This document shows positions 4,651 through 38,488 of a stretch of 64,000 nucleotides of DNA, piece after piece. How positions within the stretch are numbered: position 1 is the first letter of the stretch; each line of letters opens with the position of its first letter. This DNA comes from Gemmatimonadota bacterium (GTDB lineage Bacteria; Gemmatimonadota; Gemmatimonadetes; Gemmatimonadales; GWC2-71-9): contig JAZDCY010000060.1 of NCBI GenBank assembly GCA_036679645.1, forward strand, positions 1 to 64,000. Direction: 5' to 3'. The translations under genes and the position numbers were made by a program. The notes below the pieces were generated by a model. The model did no database searches. It worked only from the letters and a program-made list of their open reading frames with translations, and was not told the DNA's origin.

Positions 4651-6333
4651 CTAGACGGCGGGAAAAGTCGACTCCTGCGCCTCGGCGAGTTCTGCCCGGA
4701 AGGTGTTCGCGCGCTGAACCTGTTCCAGGTACGCCGACAGCTCTGACGCCTTGCGTGCACCATCCCAGCCCGCCTCCTCCCCTACGAGGTCAACCAAGCC
4801 GGCCGCTTCAGCGGCGGCGTTCCCCAGCACCTCGAAGAAGACGTGTGTCCGGCGCATCATCAGGTCGCAGAGCGTCACGGCCATCTCGCGGCGCAGCGCA
4901 TGGACCAACTCCGCGCGGATGGCGGGGTGACCGCCCGCGATTGGCTCCGCCAGCCGGGGATCCTCTCTAGCCAGTCGGGCGACGGCGGGCGTCTCACTTC
5001 CGAACGCATGTACCAGGTGATGGGCCGTAGCTGGCTCGATGCCTTCGCGTTCGGCTTCGGCGATCAGAATGTCCAGGTCGGCTACCTCGCCACCCGGGAG
5101 GGGGGTGGTGTCGGTCGGCGCGCGTGGGGGAATGGATCGACCGTCGAGCGCGCGTAGCGCCACGGTCACGCGATCGACGATCTGCCTGCTCATCTCCCGA
5201 TACGTGGTGAGTTTCCCCCCGACGATCGAAAGCATCCCCGCCTGCTCGATGATCTTGTGCTCGCGCCTGACCTCGGAGGGCGCGGCGTCCTTGGGCGGGC
5301 GGAGCAACGGCCGCAGCCCGGCCCATGTGCCAATCACGTCGTCGGCCTGCAGCCGCGCATCCGGAAAGACGGCGTTGGCCGATCGCAGCAGATACACGAC
5401 GTCTTCCCCAGTAGCGCGAACGTCTTCCGGCGCTCCGGCATAGTCGGTATCCGTCGTGCCTACGTAGGTGAACGGTCCCCAGGGAAGCACGAACATGACG
5501 CGCCCGTCGATGGGCGAGATCAAGGTGATCGCTTCGGTATTCGCGACTCGGGCGCGCGAGACGATGACGTGGACGCCTTTGGTGGGGCGGAGCATGCGAC
5601 GCCCGTCGTCTCGCAGCATGTCCGACCACGGGCCGGTCGCGTTCACGACCACGTCCGCGTGCACGCTGCGAGTCTCCCCTGTCATCCGATCGGTCACGCG
5701 CGCGCCCCGGACGCGGCCTTCCGCGTACTCGAGCTGCTCCACCTCCGCATAATTGGCCACGAGGGCGCCGTGGCGGTGGGCGTCCCGGGCATTTGCCAGC
5801 GTCAACCGCGCGTCGTTACACTGAGCGTCCCAGTAGCGCGCTCCACCGATCAGCTCGTTGGGGCGGAGACCCGGCTGCGCCCGCAGCATGGCCCGCTTGC
5901 TGAGCCATCGATGGCGGCCCACATTCTTGAAGAGCGCGAGGAGGTCATAGATCCACATGCCGGCCGCGAGCTTCCAGCGCGGCACGCGGCCGCCGGCGAA
6001 CAGCGGGAAGAGAAACGCGCACGGCCACACGAGATGGGGAGCGATGCGGAGCAGCGTCCGCCGCTCCCGACTGGCCTCGAAGACCAGGCCGATATCGCCC
6101 ATCTCGAGATAGCGCAGGCCGCCGTGAACGAGGCGCGAAGAGCGGCTGCTGGTACCGGAGGCAAAATCGTCGCGCTCGACGAGGGCAGTCCGCAGCCCGC
6201 GCATCGCCGCATCACGCGCGATCCCGGCGCCGGTAATACCGCCGCCGATGATGAGAACATCGAGCGGTTTGTGGGCCATGGCGACCAGATGGGCCGCTCT
6301 GGTGTCAACGGAGAAGGGGGAGGGGGAGGCCAC
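4651..6333 (-). CDS. glpD: FAD-dependent glycerol-3-phosphate dehydrogenase/oxidase
   Basis: IIGGGITGAG, DFASGTSSRSSRLVHGGLRYL, WAGLRPL, GGKLTTYR. Start may be 6279. Confidence 0.93.
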   Translation of the reverse strand: MASPSPFSVDTRAAHLVAMAHKPLDVLIIGGGITGAGIARDAAMRGLRTALVERDDFASGTSSRSSRLVHGGLRYLEMGDIGLVFEASRERRTLLRIAPHLVWPCAFLFPLFAGGRVPRWKLAAGMWIYDLLALFKNVGRHRWLSKRAMLRAQPGLRPNELIGGARYWDAQCNDARLTLANARDAHRHGALVANYAEVEQLEYAEGRVRGARVTDRMTGETRSVHADVVVNATGPWSDMLRDDGRRMLRPTKGVHVIVSRARVANTEAITLISPIDGRVMFVLPWGPFTYVGTTDTDYAGAPEDVRATGEDVVYLLRSANAVFPDARLQADDVIGTWAGLRPLLRPPKDAAPSEVRREHKIIEQAGMLSIVGGKLTTYREMSRQIVDRVTVALRALDGRSIPPRAPTDTTPLPGGEVADLDILIAEAEREGIEPATAHHLVHAFGSETPAVARLAREDPRLAEPIAGGHPAIRAELVHALRREMAVTLCDLMMRRTHVFFEVLGNAAAEAAGLVDLVGEEAGWDGARKASELSAYLEQVQRANTFRAELAEAQESTFPAV

Positions 6334-30830: not shown

Positions 30831-31658
30831 TCACCTGATCACCACTCCGGCATATGCCACAACGCTCTCGTCATCTCCGGTCACCCATCCGCTGTGCCGG
30901 TAGTCGACGACTTCGGCCGAGGAAGCACCGAGCTGTTTCGCGGCCTCGATCACGATCGCCGCCGGCGCGCGACCACACATCGTTACGTGCTCGCGATGGC
31001 ACACCTGCAAGAGAGCCTCGGCTTGGAGGCGTTCGATGGCGGCCAGCGCATGCTTGTCCTTGTGTGCTGCGCTCGCGGCCGACTCGTAATGAGTCATGTC
31101 CGAGGACGCGATCAACAGCACGTCGTCAGATGTCTGACGGACCACGGCGACCAGTGCGTCCGCGATCGTCCTACAGAAAGCCCAGTCGTCTGATGCGAGC
31201 ACAATGGGGACAATGCTCGTCGTGTCGCTGAGCAGCTGGAGGAAGGGAAGCTCGACCTCGATGCTGTGCTCGCCGCCATGCGCGACGGGGTCGTGCGCCA
31301 TCACGGAGCAGGTGTCGATGAGCGCTTCCGCGAACTCTTTGGCGACCTGGAGGTCTCCAAGGGGAGTCTGGAACGCGCCCCGCGCCCACGTTCCGGCGAG
31401 TCGTCCGGTCCCCACGCGGCCGCGGTGGTTCGGTCCGACGAGTACGGTTATGGGCGGGATGGCCAGGCGGCGGAAAACGTGTGCCGCACACTGGCCCGAA
31501 TAGACGAGCCCGGCGTGGGGTACGATGGCCCCGAAAGCGGGCCCGGGTTCCCCGTCGGCCCCATCGAGCTGGGTCCGGACGAGATCCTGAAGCTCGTCCC
31601 GATCTGCAGGGTAGAAGCGGCCGGCGACGGCGGGGTGGCGGAGATCGTGTTTGGGCAT
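30831..31658 (-). CDS. amrB: AmmeMemoRadiSam system protein B (MEMO1 family)
   Basis: RHPAVAGRFYP, PHAG..YSG, GPNH, EHSIEVELPFLQ, SSDMTHY, TMCG, VVAYAG. Confidence 0.9.
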   Translation of the reverse strand: MPKHDLRHPAVAGRFYPADRDELQDLVRTQLDGADGEPGPAFGAIVPHAGLVYSGQCAAHVFRRLAIPPITVLVGPNHRGRVGTGRLAGTWARGAFQTPLGDLQVAKEFAEALIDTCSVMAHDPVAHGGEHSIEVELPFLQLLSDTTSIVPIVLASDDWAFCRTIADALVAVVRQTSDDVLLIASSDMTHYESAASAAHKDKHALAAIERLQAEALLQVCHREHVTMCGRAPAAIVIEAAKQLGASSAEVVDYRHSGWVTGDDESVVAYAGVVIR

Positions 31659-31735
31659 CGTGTCCGCAGTGTTAGCGCACAGCGGAATTTCCTGCCAAGA
31701 TAGAGCCCCGAGCCTGATTCTGCGATGCGTGTGCG

Positions 31736-31831
31736 ATTGATTGCTTGCGCGCCCTAATTGACCGGTTCCGATTCCGAATTGATGCGTTCCATCCCCACAT
31801 TGACGTTGGCTTGCTTGACGCCGGCTATGTT
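31736..31831 (+). promoter_or_regulatory. phased direct-repeat promoter (putative SARP-type operator)
   Basis: ATTGA at 31736, 31757, 31778 and 31799 (exact 21 nt period), TTGC at 31811, -10-like TATGTT at 31826. Confidence 0.6.
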
Positions 31832-31885
31832 CGGCACGGTTGATCGAACACAGTGAATCTCACACCGGCGTCGGAGGAAGACGGA

Positions 31886-32098
31886 ATGTTGAAGAACAAG
31901 ATTCGGGCGATCGTGCCCATCGTCGCATTGGTCCTCGTTGCAGCCTGTTCGGATTCCACAGGCCCCGGGGCGCCGGAACTGGCGGAGATTCAGCAGGAGA
32001 GTCCGGAACAGGATCAAGCGAATAGAATACGGGGCATCGACACCGACACGAAGCGGAAGACCCCGCTCGATCAAGAGCGCGAAGACAGGGAACGGTAG
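31886..32098 (+). CDS. small lipopeptide 1 (70 aa)
   Basis: GGAGG RBS at 31873; signal peptide with VAAC lipobox, then SDSTGP; acidic tail; paralog of 34412..34603. Confidence 0.8.
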   Translation: MLKNKIRAIVPIVALVLVAACSDSTGPGAPELAEIQQESPEQDQANRIRGIDTDTKRKTPLDQEREDRER

Positions 32099-32110
32099 CT
32101 AGCGGAGAAA

Positions 32111-32197
32111 GCCGGCATACCCTTATCCATCCCACCTGCCACGGAGCAGTGCCGGCCTTAGGGGGTGTACAGCGAAAACGCTGTGCGCTCCCTCCTC
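32111..32197 (+). ncRNA. putative structured 3' RNA element/terminator, copy 1
   Basis: Stem GCCGGCAT/GTGCCGGC, then hairpin GGGGGTGTACAGCG-AAAA-CGCTGTGCGCTCCC. Confidence 0.5.
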
Positions 32198-32243
32198 CCG
32201 TTTTGGGGTGCGCGGTGAGCTGTGCGCGGGTGGGTGGGGGGGG

Positions 32244-34208
32244 TTACCCGGCTTGGTGACGTAGAGATTCGTGTCGCTGCTCGAGGCGCTTTCGCTGACC
32301 GGGAGTGAGGAGTTCCGACAAGACAACCTCGCGGAGCAACGCGGCCTCGACGAAATACCGATCTCCATCGAACGAGACGATGTGATGCCGCTCGAGTTGA
32401 GCGAGTGCATCTTCGATATCTGAGGTTGCGATATCCAGCAGTCCACTCAAGACGTCGGGTTGAACTTCGGAACCGCCGACGCAGGTCCCGACGAGCACGT
32501 CCTTTGCGGTGGCACTGAGCAGTTGGACGCGCTCCATGGTAGCCGCTTTCACTAGCTGCGGGATGTCGAACGGCACCGGAGTTTCGAGCGTGACGTTCTC
32601 GAGCGGCCACACAAGCGCCTCGCCACGCAGCGATGAAACCTCGGCGAGTCCACGCAGCAAGGACACGGTAAGGAACGGATCGCCTCCGGTCTCGAAATCC
32701 ACGCGCCGCGCGAGGCGGGCCAGTTGCTCCTCCCCGTCACACCAGGGCGCCATCTCTTGCACGAGCGCGCGGACCTCGTCACCCGAGAACAGCTCGAGCT
32801 CGACGGTTCCCCCGGCTAGGCGTCTGCCGACATCCCCCAGGAGCTTTGTGAGCCCGGTGTATTCACCCTTGGCGTCTTCGCAAGTGCTGAGCACGACGAG
32901 GATGGGGCGACCGATAGCCGTGCCAATGGCGCCTCGCAACGCCGACAACGTGGCTTCGTCGGCCAGGTGTGCGTCGTCGATGACGACCGCGAGCGGAGTT
33001 TCCTCGGCGATCGCCTCGAATAGCCCGCCCAGGGCATTCCCAATATCGGTATGGCCGAGCCCGGACATCGGCTCGAACCGTTCCGCCAATCGCGGGACGA
33101 CCGACGCGAGCATGCGTAGAGCGGTCGGATCGGTCGCGGCAAGACCCGGCGCATCGAACAGACCGCCTCGCATCAGCTGCCGCAGTGTGCTCCATGGTGT
33201 CCCGGGGTCGGTTCCCAGGGGATTGGCCAGCGCGATCATCCCACCTTCCAATCGCCACCGATTCACGCACTCCGACAGGAGCCGGGTTTTTCCTCGTCCG
33301 GCCAGCGCACTCACGACCAGCACGCGGGGACCTTGGGCAAGTGCCATGGACAACTCGGTGAATGCGCGGTTGTGCTCCCGCTCCCGCCCCACGAGCGGTG
33401 GTTCCGCGTCGGTATGCACCAGCGATGCGCGCCGCCACCGACCTTCGCGAATCCGCTCGGCCAGGGCGCGCAGCTCCTTGCTGGGCGGCACACTGTACTC
33501 GCGCTCTATGTGCCGAGCGAAATCACGATACGTAATGAGTGCGCCGGAGGAGTCGCCGCTAAGCGCGGATGCGCGCATTTGCAGCCGTACGGCCGCTTCG
33601 GCTTCGGCATCGATACCGAGCGCCCGTTGGGCCACAGTCTGAGCGACCTCGAACTCAGATGTCGAGAGCGCCTGCTCTCCGCTGTCGATCAACGAAGAGA
33701 GACTGCGGTTGCGGAGTCGCGCGCGCTCCTGCTCTAGCCACTGCTCGAACGCGGGCGCATCGGGAAGGCTCAGGCCGTCGAGGAACTCTCCGTCCCCTTC
33801 CCCGTCGCCGAGAGCATCCACGCGCAGTTGCTCGCCGCTCAGCGTGATCGCGTCGCCGCGCGAAATGAGGCGCTTGGCGCCAAGTGCGGCCCGCAGCCGG
33901 CGCACGGCCTCGTTGAGTGAATGGCGGGCGCGGGCCTGGTCCTTTTCGGGCCACAACAAGCCCATGAGATGGTCGCGGGACCGTGTGTGCTGCGGCGAAA
34001 GTGCGAGATACGCCAATAACGCCACGTGTTTCCGCCACATGACGTCGGCCGCGGGCTCCTCGCCGTCCACCAGGACGGCCGGGGGCCCGAGGCATCTCAT
34101 CTCGAGAGATCTGGGTTTCCCGAACATTGTACGCAAGCCGCTGTAATATCTCGTTTTGCGGTCAGATGTGGTACTAGACGTCCGGGTTGCATCTGGGTTG
34201 TGACTCAT
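32244..34208 (-). CDS. SARP-type wHTH-BTAD + AAA ATPase transcriptional regulator 1
   Basis: CLGPP...ALLAYLAL...RDHLMGLLWP...ARHSLNEAVRRLR, FEQWL..ER, PLVGRE, ALAGRGKT, VIDDAH, TGGDP. Start may be 34127. Confidence 0.88.
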   Translation of the reverse strand: MSHNPDATRTSSTTSDRKTRYYSGLRTMFGKPRSLEMRCLGPPAVLVDGEEPAADVMWRKHVALLAYLALSPQHTRSRDHLMGLLWPEKDQARARHSLNEAVRRLRAALGAKRLISRGDAITLSGEQLRVDALGDGEGDGEFLDGLSLPDAPAFEQWLEQERARLRNRSLSSLIDSGEQALSTSEFEVAQTVAQRALGIDAEAEAAVRLQMRASALSGDSSGALITYRDFARHIEREYSVPPSKELRALAERIREGRWRRASLVHTDAEPPLVGREREHNRAFTELSMALAQGPRVLVVSALAGRGKTRLLSECVNRWRLEGGMIALANPLGTDPGTPWSTLRQLMRGGLFDAPGLAATDPTALRMLASVVPRLAERFEPMSGLGHTDIGNALGGLFEAIAEETPLAVVIDDAHLADEATLSALRGAIGTAIGRPILVVLSTCEDAKGEYTGLTKLLGDVGRRLAGGTVELELFSGDEVRALVQEMAPWCDGEEQLARLARRVDFETGGDPFLTVSLLRGLAEVSSLRGEALVWPLENVTLETPVPFDIPQLVKAATMERVQLLSATAKDVLVGTCVGGSEVQPDVLSGLLDIATSDIEDALAQLERHHIVSFDGDRYFVEAALLREVVLSELLTPGQRKRLEQRHESLRHQAG

Positions 34209-34314
34209 TCAGTAGAGCAATACGGGTGAAGTGATCGGAAAGATGCGAAGAAGGCGGAATGGCGAGAAGGGCGCTTGAGGGCGGGAATAGGTTAAATGGT
34301 TATACGACAGTGAG

Positions 34315-34367
34315 TTGACAGCAGTTGGCGGGGGATTGAGAGCTGCTTGAGGGGTGGTCCCTAGCTT
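34315..34367 (+). promoter_or_regulatory. phased direct-repeat promoter (putative SARP-type operator)
   Basis: TTGA 34315, TTGG 34325, TTGA 34336, TTGA 34347, -10-like TAGCTT at 34362. Confidence 0.6.
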
Positions 34368-34411
34368 TGCTTTCAGTAAGTGACGGCAATGACCTGCTCT
34401 GGAGGCGAACC

Positions 34412-34603
34412 ATGAAAGCCAAGCGCATTTTCCCCGCAATCGCGATCACGCTGATCCTCGCTCTTTCTGCCTGCTCAGACGCTCTCGGGCCGACCGGTCA
34501 GAACCCAGAAGTCGCCACGGTGCTCGAGAACCAGGACGACTCCAGCCAGGACGCGCAGGGACAGCAGGGCAAGAAGCAGGATAACCCGCTCGAACAGCAG
34601 TAG
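34412..34603 (+). CDS. small lipopeptide 2 (63 aa)
   Basis: GGAGG RBS at 34401; LSAC lipobox, then SDALGP; Q/D-rich tail ending NPLEQQ. Confidence 0.8.
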   Translation: MKAKRIFPAIAITLILALSACSDALGPTGQNPEVATVLENQDDSSQDAQGQQGKKQDNPLEQQ

Positions 34604-34622
34604 GGATCGCTGAGAGGTTCTA

Positions 34623-34701
34623 CCGCCGGGAAGATCGACCATCTCGCCTCGGAGCAAACCGGCGGCCTAGGGGGCGCGGAGGGAAACCTCCCGCCCCTCC
34701 T
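34623..34701 (+). ncRNA. putative structured 3' RNA element/terminator, copy 2
   Basis: Stem CCGCCGG/CCGGCGG, then hairpin GGGGGCGCGGAGG-GAAA-CCTCCCGCCCCT. Confidence 0.5.
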
Positions 34702-34766
34702 TCCTTTCCCCCCAACCCTTCCACACCACCCCCGGTGGGAGGGCGGAAAGGCGGAAAGAGTAGCCG

Positions 34767-35849
34767 CTATCTGCCGCCTCGCATCCGCTCCACCACCATA
34801 TTGCCCATGTCGGAGGTCGCGATGCCGCTGCGGGCGTCGGCCGATTTCACCTGACCGCTCGTGAGGAGGTCCGCGATCGCGTCGTCGATGCGTTTGGCGC
34901 CGCTCGTCTCGCCAAGGAAGTCGAGCATCATGCCCGCGGCCGAGATGGCGCCGAGTGGGCAGGCGACGTTTTTGCCGGCGTACTTGGGTGCCGAGCCGTG
35001 GATCGGCTCGAACATCGACGTCTGACCTGGGTGGATGTTCCCTGAGGCGGCGATGCCCATGCCGCCCTGGAGCATGGCGCCCAGGTCGGTGATGATGTCG
35101 CCGAACAGGTTCGTGGTGACGAGCACGTCGAACCACTCGGGGTTCTTGATCATCCACATACAGCACGCGTCGACGTACGCGTGGTCCTGCTCAACCTGCG
35201 GGAAATCCTCCGCGACTTGCGCGTACACACGCGTCCAGAGGTCGTGGGGCCGTATGGCGTTCGCCTTGTCGACAAGCATCACACGCGCCTGGTGTCCGTT
35301 GCCTTTTTCCTTCGCGCGTCTCTCGGCGAGCTCGAAGGCGTAGCGCGATGCCCGCTCACAGCCCTTCCATGTGTACACGCCGTTCACGAGGGCAACCTCG
35401 TCGGGCGTGTTCTTCTTCAGGTGCCCGCCGATCTGCGCATAGAGTCCCTCGGTATTCTCGCGGACGACGATGAAGTCGATGTCGTCGGGTCCCTTGCCCT
35501 TCAACGGACAGAGGTGCTCGCTATAGAGCTTGATGGGCCGGAGATTGATGTAGAGATCGAGGCCGAATCGCAGTCCCAGAATGACCGATCGCTCGACCAG
35601 CCCAGGCTCGACGTCCGGATGCCCGATGGCGCCGAGCAGTACGGCGTCGAGCGTGCGCCACTCGTCGATGACCGAGTCGGGGACCAACTCCCTGGTCTTG
35701 AGGTAGTAGTCGCCGCTGTAGGGGTAGTCGACCAGTTCGTAGGTGAACCCCTCGAGCTTGGCTACAGCCGCGAGGGCTTTGAGCGCTTCGTCGGTGACCT
35801 CGGGTCCAATACCGTCACCGGGGAGGACCCCGATCGTGTAGGATGCCAT
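34767..35849 (-). CDS. leuB: 3-isopropylmalate dehydrogenase (beta-decarboxylating dehydrogenase family)
   Basis: PGDGIGPEV, NLRP, VRENTEG.Y, VDKAN, NLFGDIITD, FEPIHGSAP. Confidence 0.85.
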   Translation of the reverse strand: MASYTIGVLPGDGIGPEVTDEALKALAAVAKLEGFTYELVDYPYSGDYYLKTRELVPDSVIDEWRTLDAVLLGAIGHPDVEPGLVERSVILGLRFGLDLYINLRPIKLYSEHLCPLKGKGPDDIDFIVVRENTEGLYAQIGGHLKKNTPDEVALVNGVYTWKGCERASRYAFELAERRAKEKGNGHQARVMLVDKANAIRPHDLWTRVYAQVAEDFPQVEQDHAYVDACCMWMIKNPEWFDVLVTTNLFGDIITDLGAMLQGGMGIAASGNIHPGQTSMFEPIHGSAPKYAGKNVACPLGAISAAGMMLDFLGETSGAKRIDDAIADLLTSGQVKSADARSGIATSDMGNMVVERMRGGR

Positions 35850-35867: not shown

Positions 35868-36524
35868 TCAGAAGCCGAAGGAGAGCCCAATCGAGATGAC
35901 CGGATAGTACTTGAACAGATTGAGATCGTCCTCCGCGGCGGCCACTTCCCGGTCGAGGTCGGCCTGGAAGCCTGGCGTCTGGGAGATCGGACCGTTCGCC
36001 GTGAACGTCACGTCGGGCTGTCCCTGAAAGGCGACGCCCAAGTCGAGGATGAACCCGATCCGTCCGCTGGCGATGTTCCCCCATCCGATGCCGATGTAAG
36101 GCGCGATGTCGTTGTTGACGATCGTCCCGGTCAGGCTACCGACATCTGTTCCCGCGTAGGTGGAATCCCCGATATCAACCGTTCCCGTGAATACGCCGGT
36201 GATGTCGAGATCCGGTGAGGAGAACAAGACGCCGCCGCTCACGCGGAACTGACCCGCGAGAAAGAGGTCGACGAATCCGACGAACTGCGGTGAGGGAAGG
36301 TCGACCGTGAAGTCGATGTCCGAGATCGTGAGATCGATATCCGATGGGAAGATGCCACCGCCGACGCGCAAGGTGACCCGATCGTGCACCGCGATGCCGA
36401 TGTCCGCACCCAATCCCAGCGTGCCGACGTGGGGCGCCACGCCAAAGCTCGGGCCTTGGGCCAGGATTGGAGCGGGCGCCGTCGCCACAGCGAGGCACGC
36501 GAAGAGGGTCAGCAGGCGTGTCAT
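35868..36524 (-). CDS. outer membrane beta-barrel protein
   Basis: Signal peptide, GTLGLG, PYIGIGWG, C-terminal aromatic residue (GLSFGF); GGAG RBS. Confidence 0.8.
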   Translation of the reverse strand: MTRLLTLFACLAVATAPAPILAQGPSFGVAPHVGTLGLGADIGIAVHDRVTLRVGGGIFPSDIDLTISDIDFTVDLPSPQFVGFVDLFLAGQFRVSGGVLFSSPDLDITGVFTGTVDIGDSTYAGTDVGSLTGTIVNNDIAPYIGIGWGNIASGRIGFILDLGVAFQGQPDVTFTANGPISQTPGFQADLDREVAAAEDDLNLFKYYPVISIGLSFGF

Positions 36525-36592: not shown

Positions 36593-38488
36593 CTAATCTA
36601 ATCGCGTGCGTGCGCCGGACCACTCTGCGAAACGTGTCTCGAAGCGCTTGCGGCGGCTGGGTGTCAGGAACTCGCCGCGTATTACCGCGGCAATGATCGG
36701 AGCTTCCAAGTGGAACCGATCTCCGTCGAACACCACGAACCGGTGCCGTTCGAGTTCCTCGAGACCACGATCTACGGTGGCCGCGTCGAGTTCCGTGAGA
36801 GCGACGATCGCCTCGGGGTCGATGACGCGCGGCCCGATCGTCGCCGCGACCAGAACGTGACGCCCCTGCTCGGAAAGCTCGTTTGCCCGAGCAATCGTCA
36901 TGAGCCGGACGAGTTCCGGAACGTCGAATGGAACGGCTGAATCGATCGTATGACGTGGAGGCGGCCACTGGGTCGCGTCCTCGCGGAGCGCTGTCACGCG
37001 GCGGAGACCCTGCAACAACGTGGTTGCGAGGAGTGGGTTCCCGCTCGTCTCGTACCAGACCCGGCGTGCGAGCCGGTCGCGCTGCTCATCGTCGGGGCAC
37101 CAATCAGCCAGCAGCATGACGAGCGACGTGATATCGGCCTCGGTAAGGGGACCGAGGCGAACGATCATTCCCGGCAGACGACGGCCGATTTCCCCGACCA
37201 ATCCGATGCGGCTACCTTGTGCGGTCCCGCCGTCCGCGGCGGCAACGGCCAGCAGCACCGGCTCGTCGCGTAGCTGGCCCATGGCTGCCTGCCAGGCTCC
37301 CAACGTGCTGGCGTCCGCCCAATGCCCGTCGTCCACGACGATCGCCACCGGCTGCTCTTCGGCGACCGCTCGGATGAGCGACACGAGTGCCGTGGCGACG
37401 TGTGCGTGATCCAGCGCCGGCGAGGGATCCGCTCGTTCGCACAGCTCCGGTATGACGCTCGCGAGCACCGCGAGGGCGGCGGGATCTGTTCCGGCGAGCC
37501 CGGGGGCGTCGAGTAGACCTCCGCGGGCCAGCGCGCGCAACGTGCTCCACTCGGCATCACGATCCTGTTCCAGCGCGCGACCGACCGCGAGCAAACCGCC
37601 GTCGAGTTGCCAGCGATTCACGCACTCGCTCAGAAGACGAGTCTTTCCACTTCCGCTGTCACCGAGTACGGCGGCGGTGCGGCTCGCTCCCCGAAAAGCC
37701 TCCCCTACGAGCCGGAAGATCTCCTCGTGCACGGCGGCCCGGCCGACGAGCGGGGGATCCACATCCGGCGACGCCACCGAGCGTCGGCGCCAGCGCCCGT
37801 TGCGGATGCGCTCCGCGAGCGCCGTCAGCTCGCGGCTGGGATCCTCGGCGAACTCCGCCTCGAGACGGTTGGCGAATTCGTGGAACCCGCGTAGCGCACC
37901 GGCAGCATCCCCCGCCAAGGTCGCGGCGCGCATCCGCAACCGCGCGGCCGGCTCGGAGTACGGGTCGAGCGCAAGCACGCGGGCTGCCGCCTCGTGCGCC
38001 TCGGCAAACCGCAGCGCGGCCAGCTCCCGCTCGCCGGTCCGCAACAAGGCCGAACTTGCCTGGGTCCGATGTCGCCCGCGCTCGGCCATGACCCAATCCT
38101 CAAAGGCCGGGGCGTCGTCGAGGGTCAGGCCCTCCAGGAAATCCCCGCGCGTAAGCGCCCGCTCGAGATCGTCCGCGTCGACGGAAAGTGCGGTGTCGTC
38201 GAGCGTGAGTGTGTCGCCCTTCGAGCGGATTCGGTCTGTCCCGAGTCCGGAGCGGAGTCGCCGCACCGCCTCGTTGAGTGAGTGGCGCGCCTTCGTCTGG
38301 TCCTTTTCGGGCCAGAGGAGCCCGAGCAGGTGTTCCCGCGACCTGGTCCGGTCGGGCGAGAGCGCCAGGTAGGCCAACAGCGCCACGTTCTTGCGCCATA
38401 GCACGTCCGTGGGCGGCTCCGCTCCGTCGATCCGGATGACCGGAGGGCCGAAACACCGGAGCTCCAGGGTCGGCAACTGATCGGGCAT
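36593..38488 (-). CDS. SARP-type wHTH-BTAD + AAA ATPase transcriptional regulator 2 (paralog of 32244..34208)
   Basis: CFGPP...WRKNVALLAYLAL...ARHSLNEAVRRLR, PLVGR, GDSGSGKT, VVDDGHW, TSGNP. Confidence 0.88.
   Translation of the reverse strand: MPDQLPTLELRCFGPPVIRIDGAEPPTDVLWRKNVALLAYLALSPDRTRSREHLLGLLWPEKDQTKARHSLNEAVRRLRSGLGTDRIRSKGDTLTLDDTALSVDADDLERALTRGDFLEGLTLDDAPAFEDWVMAERGRHRTQASSALLRTGERELAALRFAEAHEAAARVLALDPYSEPAARLRMRAATLAGDAAGALRGFHEFANRLEAEFAEDPSRELTALAERIRNGRWRRRSVASPDVDPPLVGRAAVHEEIFRLVGEAFRGASRTAAVLGDSGSGKTRLLSECVNRWQLDGGLLAVGRALEQDRDAEWSTLRALARGGLLDAPGLAGTDPAALAVLASVIPELCERADPSPALDHAHVATALVSLIRAVAEEQPVAIVVDDGHWADASTLGAWQAAMGQLRDEPVLLAVAAADGGTAQGSRIGLVGEIGRRLPGMIVRLGPLTEADITSLVMLLADWCPDDEQRDRLARRVWYETSGNPLLATTLLQGLRRVTALREDATQWPPPRHTIDSAVPFDVPELVRLMTIARANELSEQGRHVLVAATIGPRVIDPEAIVALTELDAATVDRGLEELERHRFVVFDGDRFHLEAPIIAAVIRGEFLTPSRRKRFETRFAEWSGARTRLD

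Follow-up and report, generated by a model that had tools for sequence, protein, structure and literature searches.

A predicted SARP-type regulator bracketed by short lipoprotein genes: a likely cell-envelope switch in Gemmatimonadota

In this work, we analysed positions 31,736–34,701 of a 64,000-nucleotide (nt) stretch (the window) of contig JAZDCY010000060.1 (assembly GCA_036679645.1, Gemmatimonadota bacterium, GWC2-71-9), where a regulator gene is bracketed by two genes for short predicted lipoproteins. Regulator 1, possibly along with its nearby paralog regulator 2, is probably an AfsR-type activator of the flanking lipoprotein genes, serving a cell-envelope programme with peptide and possibly small-RNA outputs. 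An earlier note on this DNA had proposed a regulator/exported-peptide circuit with quorum-like signalling or an envelope response in mind; the regulator–target module is upheld by gene adjacency in relatives and by promoters of SARP geometry, while the quorum-like part is not, and the envelope response fits better. The results point to a probable cell-envelope switch that has so far gone undescribed, and not to quorum signalling by a peptide. The features in question are the following.

31779..31831, plus strand: predicted SARP-type promoter 1, with TTGAC-like repeats at 31779, 31800 and 31811 and a −10-like hexamer at 31826–31831; the −35/−10 spacer is 20 nt counted from the middle repeat
31873..31877, plus strand: ribosome-binding site GGAGG of short lipoprotein 1, seen in the sequence
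31886..32098, plus strand: short lipoprotein 1, 70 amino acids (aa), with lipobox Cys21 at 31946–31948, Ser at +2 and PL[DE]Q at 32063–32074; an ortholog is present in a same-genus genome (L321)
32109..32197, plus strand: 3′ structured RNA 1 (covariance-model score 29.3 bits, the best in the window; folding z −5.5), whose stem 32111–32117/32150–32156 encloses a small hairpin together with an unpaired, C-rich stretch; a terminator-like hairpin follows at 32160–32193
32244..34127, minus strand: regulator 1, 627 aa, with an OmpR-type winged helix-turn-helix (wHTH) and BTAD (together the SARP domain) and a STAND-type NOD
34315..34367, plus strand: predicted SARP-type promoter 2, with repeats at 34315, 34336 and 34347 and a −10-like hexamer at 34362–34367
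34401..34405, plus strand: ribosome-binding site GGAGG of short lipoprotein 2, seen in the sequence
34412..34603, plus strand: short lipoprotein 2, 63 aa, with lipobox Cys21 at 34472–34474 and PL[DE]Q at 34586–34597
34621..34706, plus strand: 3′ structured RNA 2, with a stem 34623–34629/34659–34665 and a terminator-like hairpin at 34670–34698 (18.9 bits, second in the window; z −2.3)
36593..38488, minus strand: regulator 2, 631 aa, a paralog that shares its architecture and its recognition helix with regulator 1

The two small open reading frames (ORFs), their GGAGG sites, lipobox cysteines and PL[DE]Q motifs, and both regulator genes lie where the earlier note had placed them. Only the start of regulator 1, given there as 34208, had to be moved: it is most probably the ATG at 34127, yielding 627 aa, since the homologs begin there.

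In front of both lipoprotein genes, TTGAC-like direct repeats stand 21 and then 11 nt apart, and a 20-nt spacer separates the −35 and −10 elements. Four of the five best non-self relatives possess a convergent lipoprotein gene (43, 309, 71 or 72 aa, without PL[DE]Q), and before these four, just as before the window genes, a TTGAC-like repeat recurs at intervals of 21 and then 11 nt, with a TAnnnT hexamer lying 20 nt past the middle repeat. A matrix built from these four other genomes alone, its columns picked after all six sites had been inspected, placed window promoters 2 and 1 at ranks 1 and 2 of 8,085,272 positions. As far as sequence comparison goes, the conserved part of the module is the promoter and not the peptide. 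In the excerpt of PMC10936776 that deals with the afs box, its repeats occupy −40 to −19 and its −35 element −38 to −33; if the −10 element is taken as −12 to −7, as deduced from the scaffold given there, the afs box therefore has an identical 20-nt spacer and identical distances from the repeats to −10. The window repeats are phased by 11 and 21–22 nt, and the repeat TT lies 15 and 26 nt from the −10 element, as deduced for the afs box. The shared promoter geometry claimed for the two peptide genes was thus borne out, and it is of the SARP type. A sigma-70 scan found no promoter, as expected from the 20-nt spacer.

Furthermore, from 337 genome relatives and at least 537 metagenome relatives, the best 80 each were taken into a census of regulator loci; Gemmatimonadota taxa are named for all but one of the 80 genome loci with titles. 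A refined matrix, trained on these very loci, found a site above 14 bits at 44 of the 80 genome loci vs. 0 of 240 resampled sequences, and it also matched 44 of the 80 metagenome loci, which stem partly from the same organisms. We then dropped duplicate and incomplete proteins, five proteins of the outgroup, and any locus whose flank on either side was shorter than 1 kb, which left 85 clade regulators. A boxed promoter lies beside 60 of them and precedes a lipoprotein in 45 cases, the output being a short lipoprotein at 31 loci, only longer lipoproteins at 14 and an ORF-less convergent transcript at 14. By a promoter-independent rule, a short lipoprotein adjoins 28 of the 85 clade regulators vs. 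0 of 20 sister-group regulators. The same rule finds just 6 short-lipoprotein ORFs in the whole 4.05-Mb own genome, two of which are the window pair, thus putting the pair beyond chance. The association is spread across many branches of the clade, whose members are kin and not independent. Bracketing of a regulator by two targets, as in the window, recurs in L162, L202 and L245, and tandem target pairs occur in the L186 group. Beside regulator 2, a boxed promoter was searched for and none was found.

Peptide and regulator do not always occur together: at 14 of the 85 loci the promoter drives no lipoprotein, and a 93%-identical metagenome ortholog of regulator 1 (L240) has a thiamine-binding-protein gene in place of peptide 1, with half of the hairpin left. 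In a same-genus genome, peptide 1, its promoter and the 3′ RNA are kept beside a memo gene followed by a stub of the regulator 3′ end (L321, G001 C77), and the full regulator lies on another contig (L031, G001 C88). This separation suggests action in trans, or else an assembly effect. About 130 nt of the regulator 3′ end are duplicated beside the peptide gene in L321, and a terminator remnant follows the full regulator in L031, an arrangement which is either a recent translocation or an assembly artefact.

Two further kinds of observation were made at the loci of the census. L177 shows a fourth type of output: near 5140–5265 on the minus strand, the ORF behind the boxed promoter is 42 aa long, lacks a lipobox and has a single hydrophobic helix at its C-terminus. 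In L181, L207, L211, L215, L222, L274 and L283, a further conserved non-coding stretch of ~60 nt lies just downstream of the regulator and upstream of the convergent promoter; three of these loci were scanned against Rfam, and the stretch had no match.

Regulators 1 and 2 are 47–48% identical, and each contains Trans_reg_C, BTAD and AAA_16 above the Pfam cut-off. The OmpR-type wHTH is followed by the BTAD, just as in SARPs, with profile matches to EmbR and AfsR and fold matches to 8K60 and 8HVR. The predicted model of regulator 1 (predicted local distance difference test score 82, predicted template modelling score 0.45, 7 sequences) matches the SARP domains of AfsR and EmbR and the STAND NODs of Apaf-1, MalT and NLRs. 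Walker A, Walker B and GxP, as expected of a STAND NOD, are present in both window proteins; in an alignment of 127 proteins, the Walker A residue is Lys 88 times and Arg 39 times. A C-terminal TPR sensor was looked for and is absent: the window proteins end one or two helices after the winged-helix domain (WHD), and most clade relatives extend only ~80–95 residues further. The WHD histidine of the His-Asp (HD) latch is found in 0 of 126 proteins at the column where an in-genome outgroup (on contig C7) has His, a column deduced with AfsR outside the alignment. The sister group lacks this histidine as well, and C10 has His-Asp there, as judged by eye. The window regulators would thus not be gated by a C-terminal ligand sensor. 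Nor would the BTAD be free to receive a peptide; it would make a poor receptor, since in AfsR the BTA holds sigma region 4 and the C-terminal domain of the RNA polymerase alpha subunit, according to the excerpt of PMC10936776. Upstream of the regulator 1 start (by 54–73 nt), at window positions 34181–34200, there is a second direct repeat of 9 nt with 11-nt spacing and a different sequence, perhaps a site for another SARP.

Regulator 1, possibly with regulator 2, would bind the TTGAC repeats and switch on both flanking genes, and from each gene a peptide anchored by lipid in the envelope would arise, perhaps along with a structured small RNA from the 3′ end. By analogy with AfsR, protomers may occupy the two proximal repeats, sigma region 4 would use the −35 element placed 20 nt from −10, and the BTAD would contact RNA polymerase. 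The peptide would be exported by Sec, lipidated and sorted by Lol (Ser at +2; LolA is above the cut-off in the own genome), so as to display a flexible tether with a short lineage-specific tail. The weakest step is the input, which would not be a small ligand bound at the C-terminus, since both the TPR sensor and the His latch are missing; our best guess is the nucleotide state or a membrane Ser/Thr kinase, as with AfsK. Its likely purpose is envelope remodelling or protection, since in relatives the box precedes Ig-like and SnoaL lipoproteins and secreted proteins.

The nearest standard for such a mechanism is AfsR–afsS of Streptomyces, a large SARP of the SARP-NOD-TPR type (PDB 8HVR, 8K60) and its target. 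As far as the excerpts on that system reach, the likeness covers the N-terminal wHTH and BTAD on a STAND NOD, the 11-nt-phased direct repeats across −35 and the spacer at an equal distance from −10, and an adjacent target gene encoding a protein of ~60–70 aa. The same excerpts report that in AfsR the NOD and TPR inhibit the SARP domain and ATP relieves the inhibition (PMC10936776), that AfsR with a broken HD motif is autoactive (bioRxiv 10.64898/2026.09.02.748808), and that AfsS binds AfsR (PMC10832544). In contrast, the window system belongs to Gemmatimonadota and not Actinomycetota, lacks the TPR sensor and the HD latch, has a third repeat 21–22 nt upstream and shows no link to antibiotic clusters here. 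Moreover, its target is a lipoprotein predicted to be exported, a longer lipoprotein or an RNA without an ORF, whereas AfsS is a cytoplasmic co-regulator. By these marks the module appears to work like AfsR–afsS and its regulator to be a SARP, yet it fails two defining features of the AfsR-type large SARPs.

EmbR of Mycobacterium tuberculosis controls envelope genes under a Ser/Thr kinase. It likewise has a SARP domain (PDB 2FEZ, 2FF4); unlike the regulators described here, which have a NOD, it carries an FHA domain, and kinase control in our case is a guess. The RRNPP regulators and the lipoprotein-derived enterococcal pheromones also place a regulator beside a gene for a small exported peptide; here, however, there is no C-terminal TPR receptor, and the peptide is predicted to be kept on its lipid anchor and is neither conserved nor always present. 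The cpxP/CpxQ system of Enterobacteriales (PMC9438474) resembles our module in having an activator-driven envelope-protein gene; here, too, the 3′ untranslated region may hold the best-conserved stretch and act as a small RNA. It differs in that our activator is a SARP-STAND protein and not a response regulator, Hfq was not found, and ORF-less sister forms exist.

The peptides show the features of bacterial lipoproteins (a basic N-region, a hydrophobic core and a lipobox cysteine, with lipidation predicted). They match no family above the cut-off in Pfam or NCBIfam, and the ESM Atlas gave only unnamed clusters at 0.90, with recognition below threshold. Between the two, identity is only 28% and the tblastn link no better than E 0.6–0.8; their kinship is seen through the promoter, the 3′ RNA and a common profile. 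The ACSD-x-x-GP start is indeed present in both, but as a sign of paralogy it fails, C-S-D-x-x-GP being generic: it opens 8 of the 125 lipobox ORFs of the own genome, and [GE]P stands at the corresponding position in 40 of 47 short targets elsewhere. These 47 distinct targets from outside the window's lineage are 43–83 aa long, 39 convergent and 7 divergent; 25 have two further cysteines and 22 have none. The ratio of nonsynonymous to synonymous substitutions (dN/dS) is 0.35 for the mature and 0.40 for the signal parts in 12 disjoint pairs, which were selected at 55–97% identity, a choice that biases the ratio down. With these values the peptides are, to judge from codon changes, under purifying selection and hence real genes. 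PL[DE]Q had been taken for the functional part of the mature chain. Of 14 close homologs, three of which made up the query, 12 have it, as does one of six more distant members; four of these six have just an L-[DEA] core. It occurs in none of the 47 short targets outside the lineage, 4 of which have the looser core. PL[DE]Q thus appears lineage-specific and is not a functional constant of the family.

A shared 3′ RNA fold behind the two peptide genes was seen here too, with modest model scores. The three lineage copies fold with z-scores of −5.5 (RNA 1), −2.3 (RNA 2) and −4.4. When a covariance model trained on 8 sequences from outside the window was run over the 64 kb, the window elements came first and second (the next hit scores 11.9 bits); in a search of 690 kb it recovered the same-genus copy with 33.2 bits. 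A 21-nt stretch of the unpaired core (32128–32148) is identical at 20 of 21 positions in the ortholog, a single pair. Covariation is seen at 15 of 21 pairs, 10 of the 15 lying in the terminator hairpin of an alignment fitted to the structure. The fold resembles the ORF-less RNAs, which come in two types: one is built of a stem whose bulge is C-rich, a small hairpin and a terminator (L165, L169, L170, L171, L174, L208, L257), the other of a hairpin whose loop is C-rich and a terminator (L179, L180, L185, L195, L197 and others). Each type also sits behind a lipoprotein ORF in a related locus (L189; L184 and L259). Scores of 27–30 bits are also reached in 6 of 151 class genomes, with 28 candidates per genome scored, with no promoter or regulator nearby. 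Rfam gave nothing credible in 31600–34900 and no match at the gathering score in 20 loci, and Hfq (PF17209) was not found in the own genome, which is 92.7% complete. Among the sequencing runs listed as containing this DNA there was no RNA run; one of them covers the entire stretch and may be its source.

Other identities for the RNA were tried. An HDV-like ribozyme was rejected on strand order, as judged by eye against the family layout. A loose RNA pattern gave at least 120 matches in viral contigs; among 80 of these, the four strongest folds lacked the two-stem form, and the matches were taken as chance. A CsrA sponge of the CsrB/RsmZ type was also rejected, with one or two GGA per copy and CsrA not found in five of five genomes with the ORF-less form; CsrA is present in the own genome.

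Two alternative readings concern the 3′ element, and each of them we regard as possible though rather doubtful. One makes a small regulatory RNA the main conserved output, its C-rich element pairing with G-rich translation start regions and the peptide ORF being an optional passenger, as in cpxP/CpxQ. The 14 ORF-less loci fit this well: they are predicted to transcribe just a structured RNA of 60–150 nt, in two separate branches, each with a relative that shows the same fold behind a lipoprotein ORF. The ranking by the non-window model, the covarying pairs and the near-identical core, which recalls CpxQ in the excerpt of PMC9438474, point the same way. Yet most short-lipoprotein loci show no such element, the peptides themselves are under purifying selection, and the scores in genomes lacking promoter and regulator, the crowding of covariation in the terminator and the negative Hfq and Rfam searches all tell against it, so that a small-RNA role for the 3′ element can be proposed only tentatively. 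The other alternative sees a mere terminator between convergent genes, with ORF-less promoters as relics after peptide loss. Here the second hairpin has the look of a terminator, many copies including a U run, peptide loss with half of the hairpin left is seen in L240, and degraded promoter remnants occur in L181 and L274. Termination, however, does not need the first stem and the C-rich loop, which are kept in many ORF-less loci with intact promoters, and element 2 stands behind a gene that does not face the regulator.

A peptide feedback or quorum circuit, in which the mature tail is released or displayed, sensed and made to alter regulator activity, is unlikely; topology would allow it only by way of a receptor in the periplasm, for instance a membrane Ser/Thr kinase, and not by way of the BTAD. 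In its favour, PL[DE]Q persists within the lineage while the linker varies, an L-[DEA] core remains in four of the five distant members without the exact motif, and the two-Cys loop found instead in 25 of the 47 other targets resembles variable identity tags; moreover, AfsS binds AfsR (excerpt of PMC10832544), and a box-like site precedes a membrane Ser/Thr kinase gene in the own genome. Against it stand the absence of a TPR sensor of the RRNPP type, the occupation of the AfsR BTA by RNA polymerase parts (excerpt of PMC10936776), a product predicted to be lipid-anchored outside the cytoplasm, the loci with ORF-less targets or only long lipoproteins (14 of 85 each, short lipoproteins being confined to 31), and the loss of peptide 1 beside the 93% ortholog. 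No dedicated protease or importer gene was seen between positions 31 and 39 kb of the window. It is also improbable that the repeats are read by another factor, be it a different BTAD paralog or a spacer-twisting activator of the MerR type acting on a near-consensus −35 with a long spacer. The own genome encodes 7 BTAD-type proteins, the repeat core resembles a plain −35 hexamer, and long spacers are typical of MerR promoters; nevertheless, the box travels with the regulator 1 clade, the repeats are direct and not palindromic, and the BTAD-AAA regulator on C7, which has another recognition helix, is accompanied by promoters of its own in which the repeat also differs.

Boxes away from the regulator were also scored. 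Four sites above 19 were found in the own genome, namely the two peptide promoters and those of a 66-aa CxxC protein and a membrane Ser/Thr kinase. Among five genomes without an adjacent target, three contain 13, 38 and 35 boxes vs. 4, 11 and 7 in reversed-pattern controls; in another five, which do have adjacent targets, the excess is small. For two box-rich genomes 26 distinct sites were listed. Eleven of these stand before proteins with a lipobox or signal peptide (by eye), including Big_2, fn3 and SnoaL lipoproteins; the genes behind other sites encode an ADP-ribosylglycohydrolase or an AraC regulator, or their ORF calls were unclear.

Besides the selection of the dN/dS pairs, several points weigh against regulator 1 as an activator of an envelope programme. 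The remaining two genomes without an adjacent target show no box excess (3 vs. 6 and 5 vs. 2). Since there are 4–7 SARP-domain proteins in each of five genomes checked, with 2–3 close ones in G464 and G465, the dispersed boxes are not assignable to one regulator. The scan patterns for relatives contained the recognition helix, the conservation of which is partly by construction; the loci are kin, dereplicated by identical sequence alone; and within the flanks covered no boxed promoter was found at 25 of the 85 regulators. A strict pattern run over 401 phylum genomes gave 11 matches vs. 12 in reversed controls and is not enriched, although 7 of the 11 drive short lipoproteins, 6 of these beside a regulator and one of the six new; by this count, the module appears real but patchy. 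The envelope role, which we consider likely, rests on the types of target.

For one clade, a binding site can now be predicted, along with a promoter geometry and a class of targets, so that regulons can be read from sequence in a phylum that is largely uncultured. Hardly any SARPs are known outside the actinomycetes, and BTAD-AAA proteins are abundant in Gemmatimonadota, with no targets described in the literature searched. That search, thin on subscription papers, found no description of SARP/BTAD regulators, their promoters or such peptides in this phylum. The module also offers a natural STAND switch lacking sensor and latch, on which the control of such proteins can be examined, and two candidate types of small RNA whose promoters are known; the claim of a new peptide quorum system is lowered. 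More speculatively, and with more doubt than confidence on our side, this may be a dual-output cassette in which a sensorless, latch-free SARP-STAND family drives a hypervariable lipid-anchored peptide and an Hfq-independent C-rich 3′ small RNA, the outputs being swapped or lost independently, with the RNA alone in at least two branches, and the peptides could close the loop via periplasmic kinase receptors. If true, it would contain the first small-RNA class of the phylum and the first SARP with a small RNA as a direct target.

Some boxed sites deserve mention in their own right. G464 and G465 contain 35–38 dispersed box matches each (L349–L364, L392–L411), many of them near-perfect triple repeats, which amounts to a large unannotated regulon; some sites there precede short ORF-less repeats of an obscure kind (L399, L354, L365). 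In three genomes (G000, the own genome, C7:19661–19713, minus strand, L330; L348; L378), a box stands away from the regulator, before a zinc-ribbon-like protein of 66–88 aa that has two CxxC pairs and may be a conserved target in trans; the own-genome copy had no Pfam match. Weaker box-like sites precede similar regulator genes in the own genome (G000 C4:72453–73313, minus strand, L412) and in G465 (L359), where the regulator has an AraC-type HTH. Box-like sites before membrane Ser/Thr kinase genes (G000 C20 near 18845, minus strand, L414; L266, L270, L277, L281), a possible AfsK-like link, belong in the latter four loci to genes divergent from the regulator and identified as kinases by eye.

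In the window itself, a gene for a beta-barrel-like outer-membrane protein with a signal peptide (35868–36524, minus strand) lies directly downstream of regulator 2; its match to the CarO model (E 4e-12) is far below the cut-off, and no box was found upstream of it. Elsewhere in the own genome (G000 C7:251660–254689, L413), a BTAD-AAA regulator that keeps the WHD His faces away from three tandem genes for peptides of 47–51 aa with an acidic ExLEERIAP-type end. Two of these genes have their own SARP-geometry promoters with an ATTCAC repeat, and the peptides weakly match the NHLP-clan leader model of ribosomally synthesized and post-translationally modified peptides (E 0.012); this is possibly an array of such precursors under SARP control.

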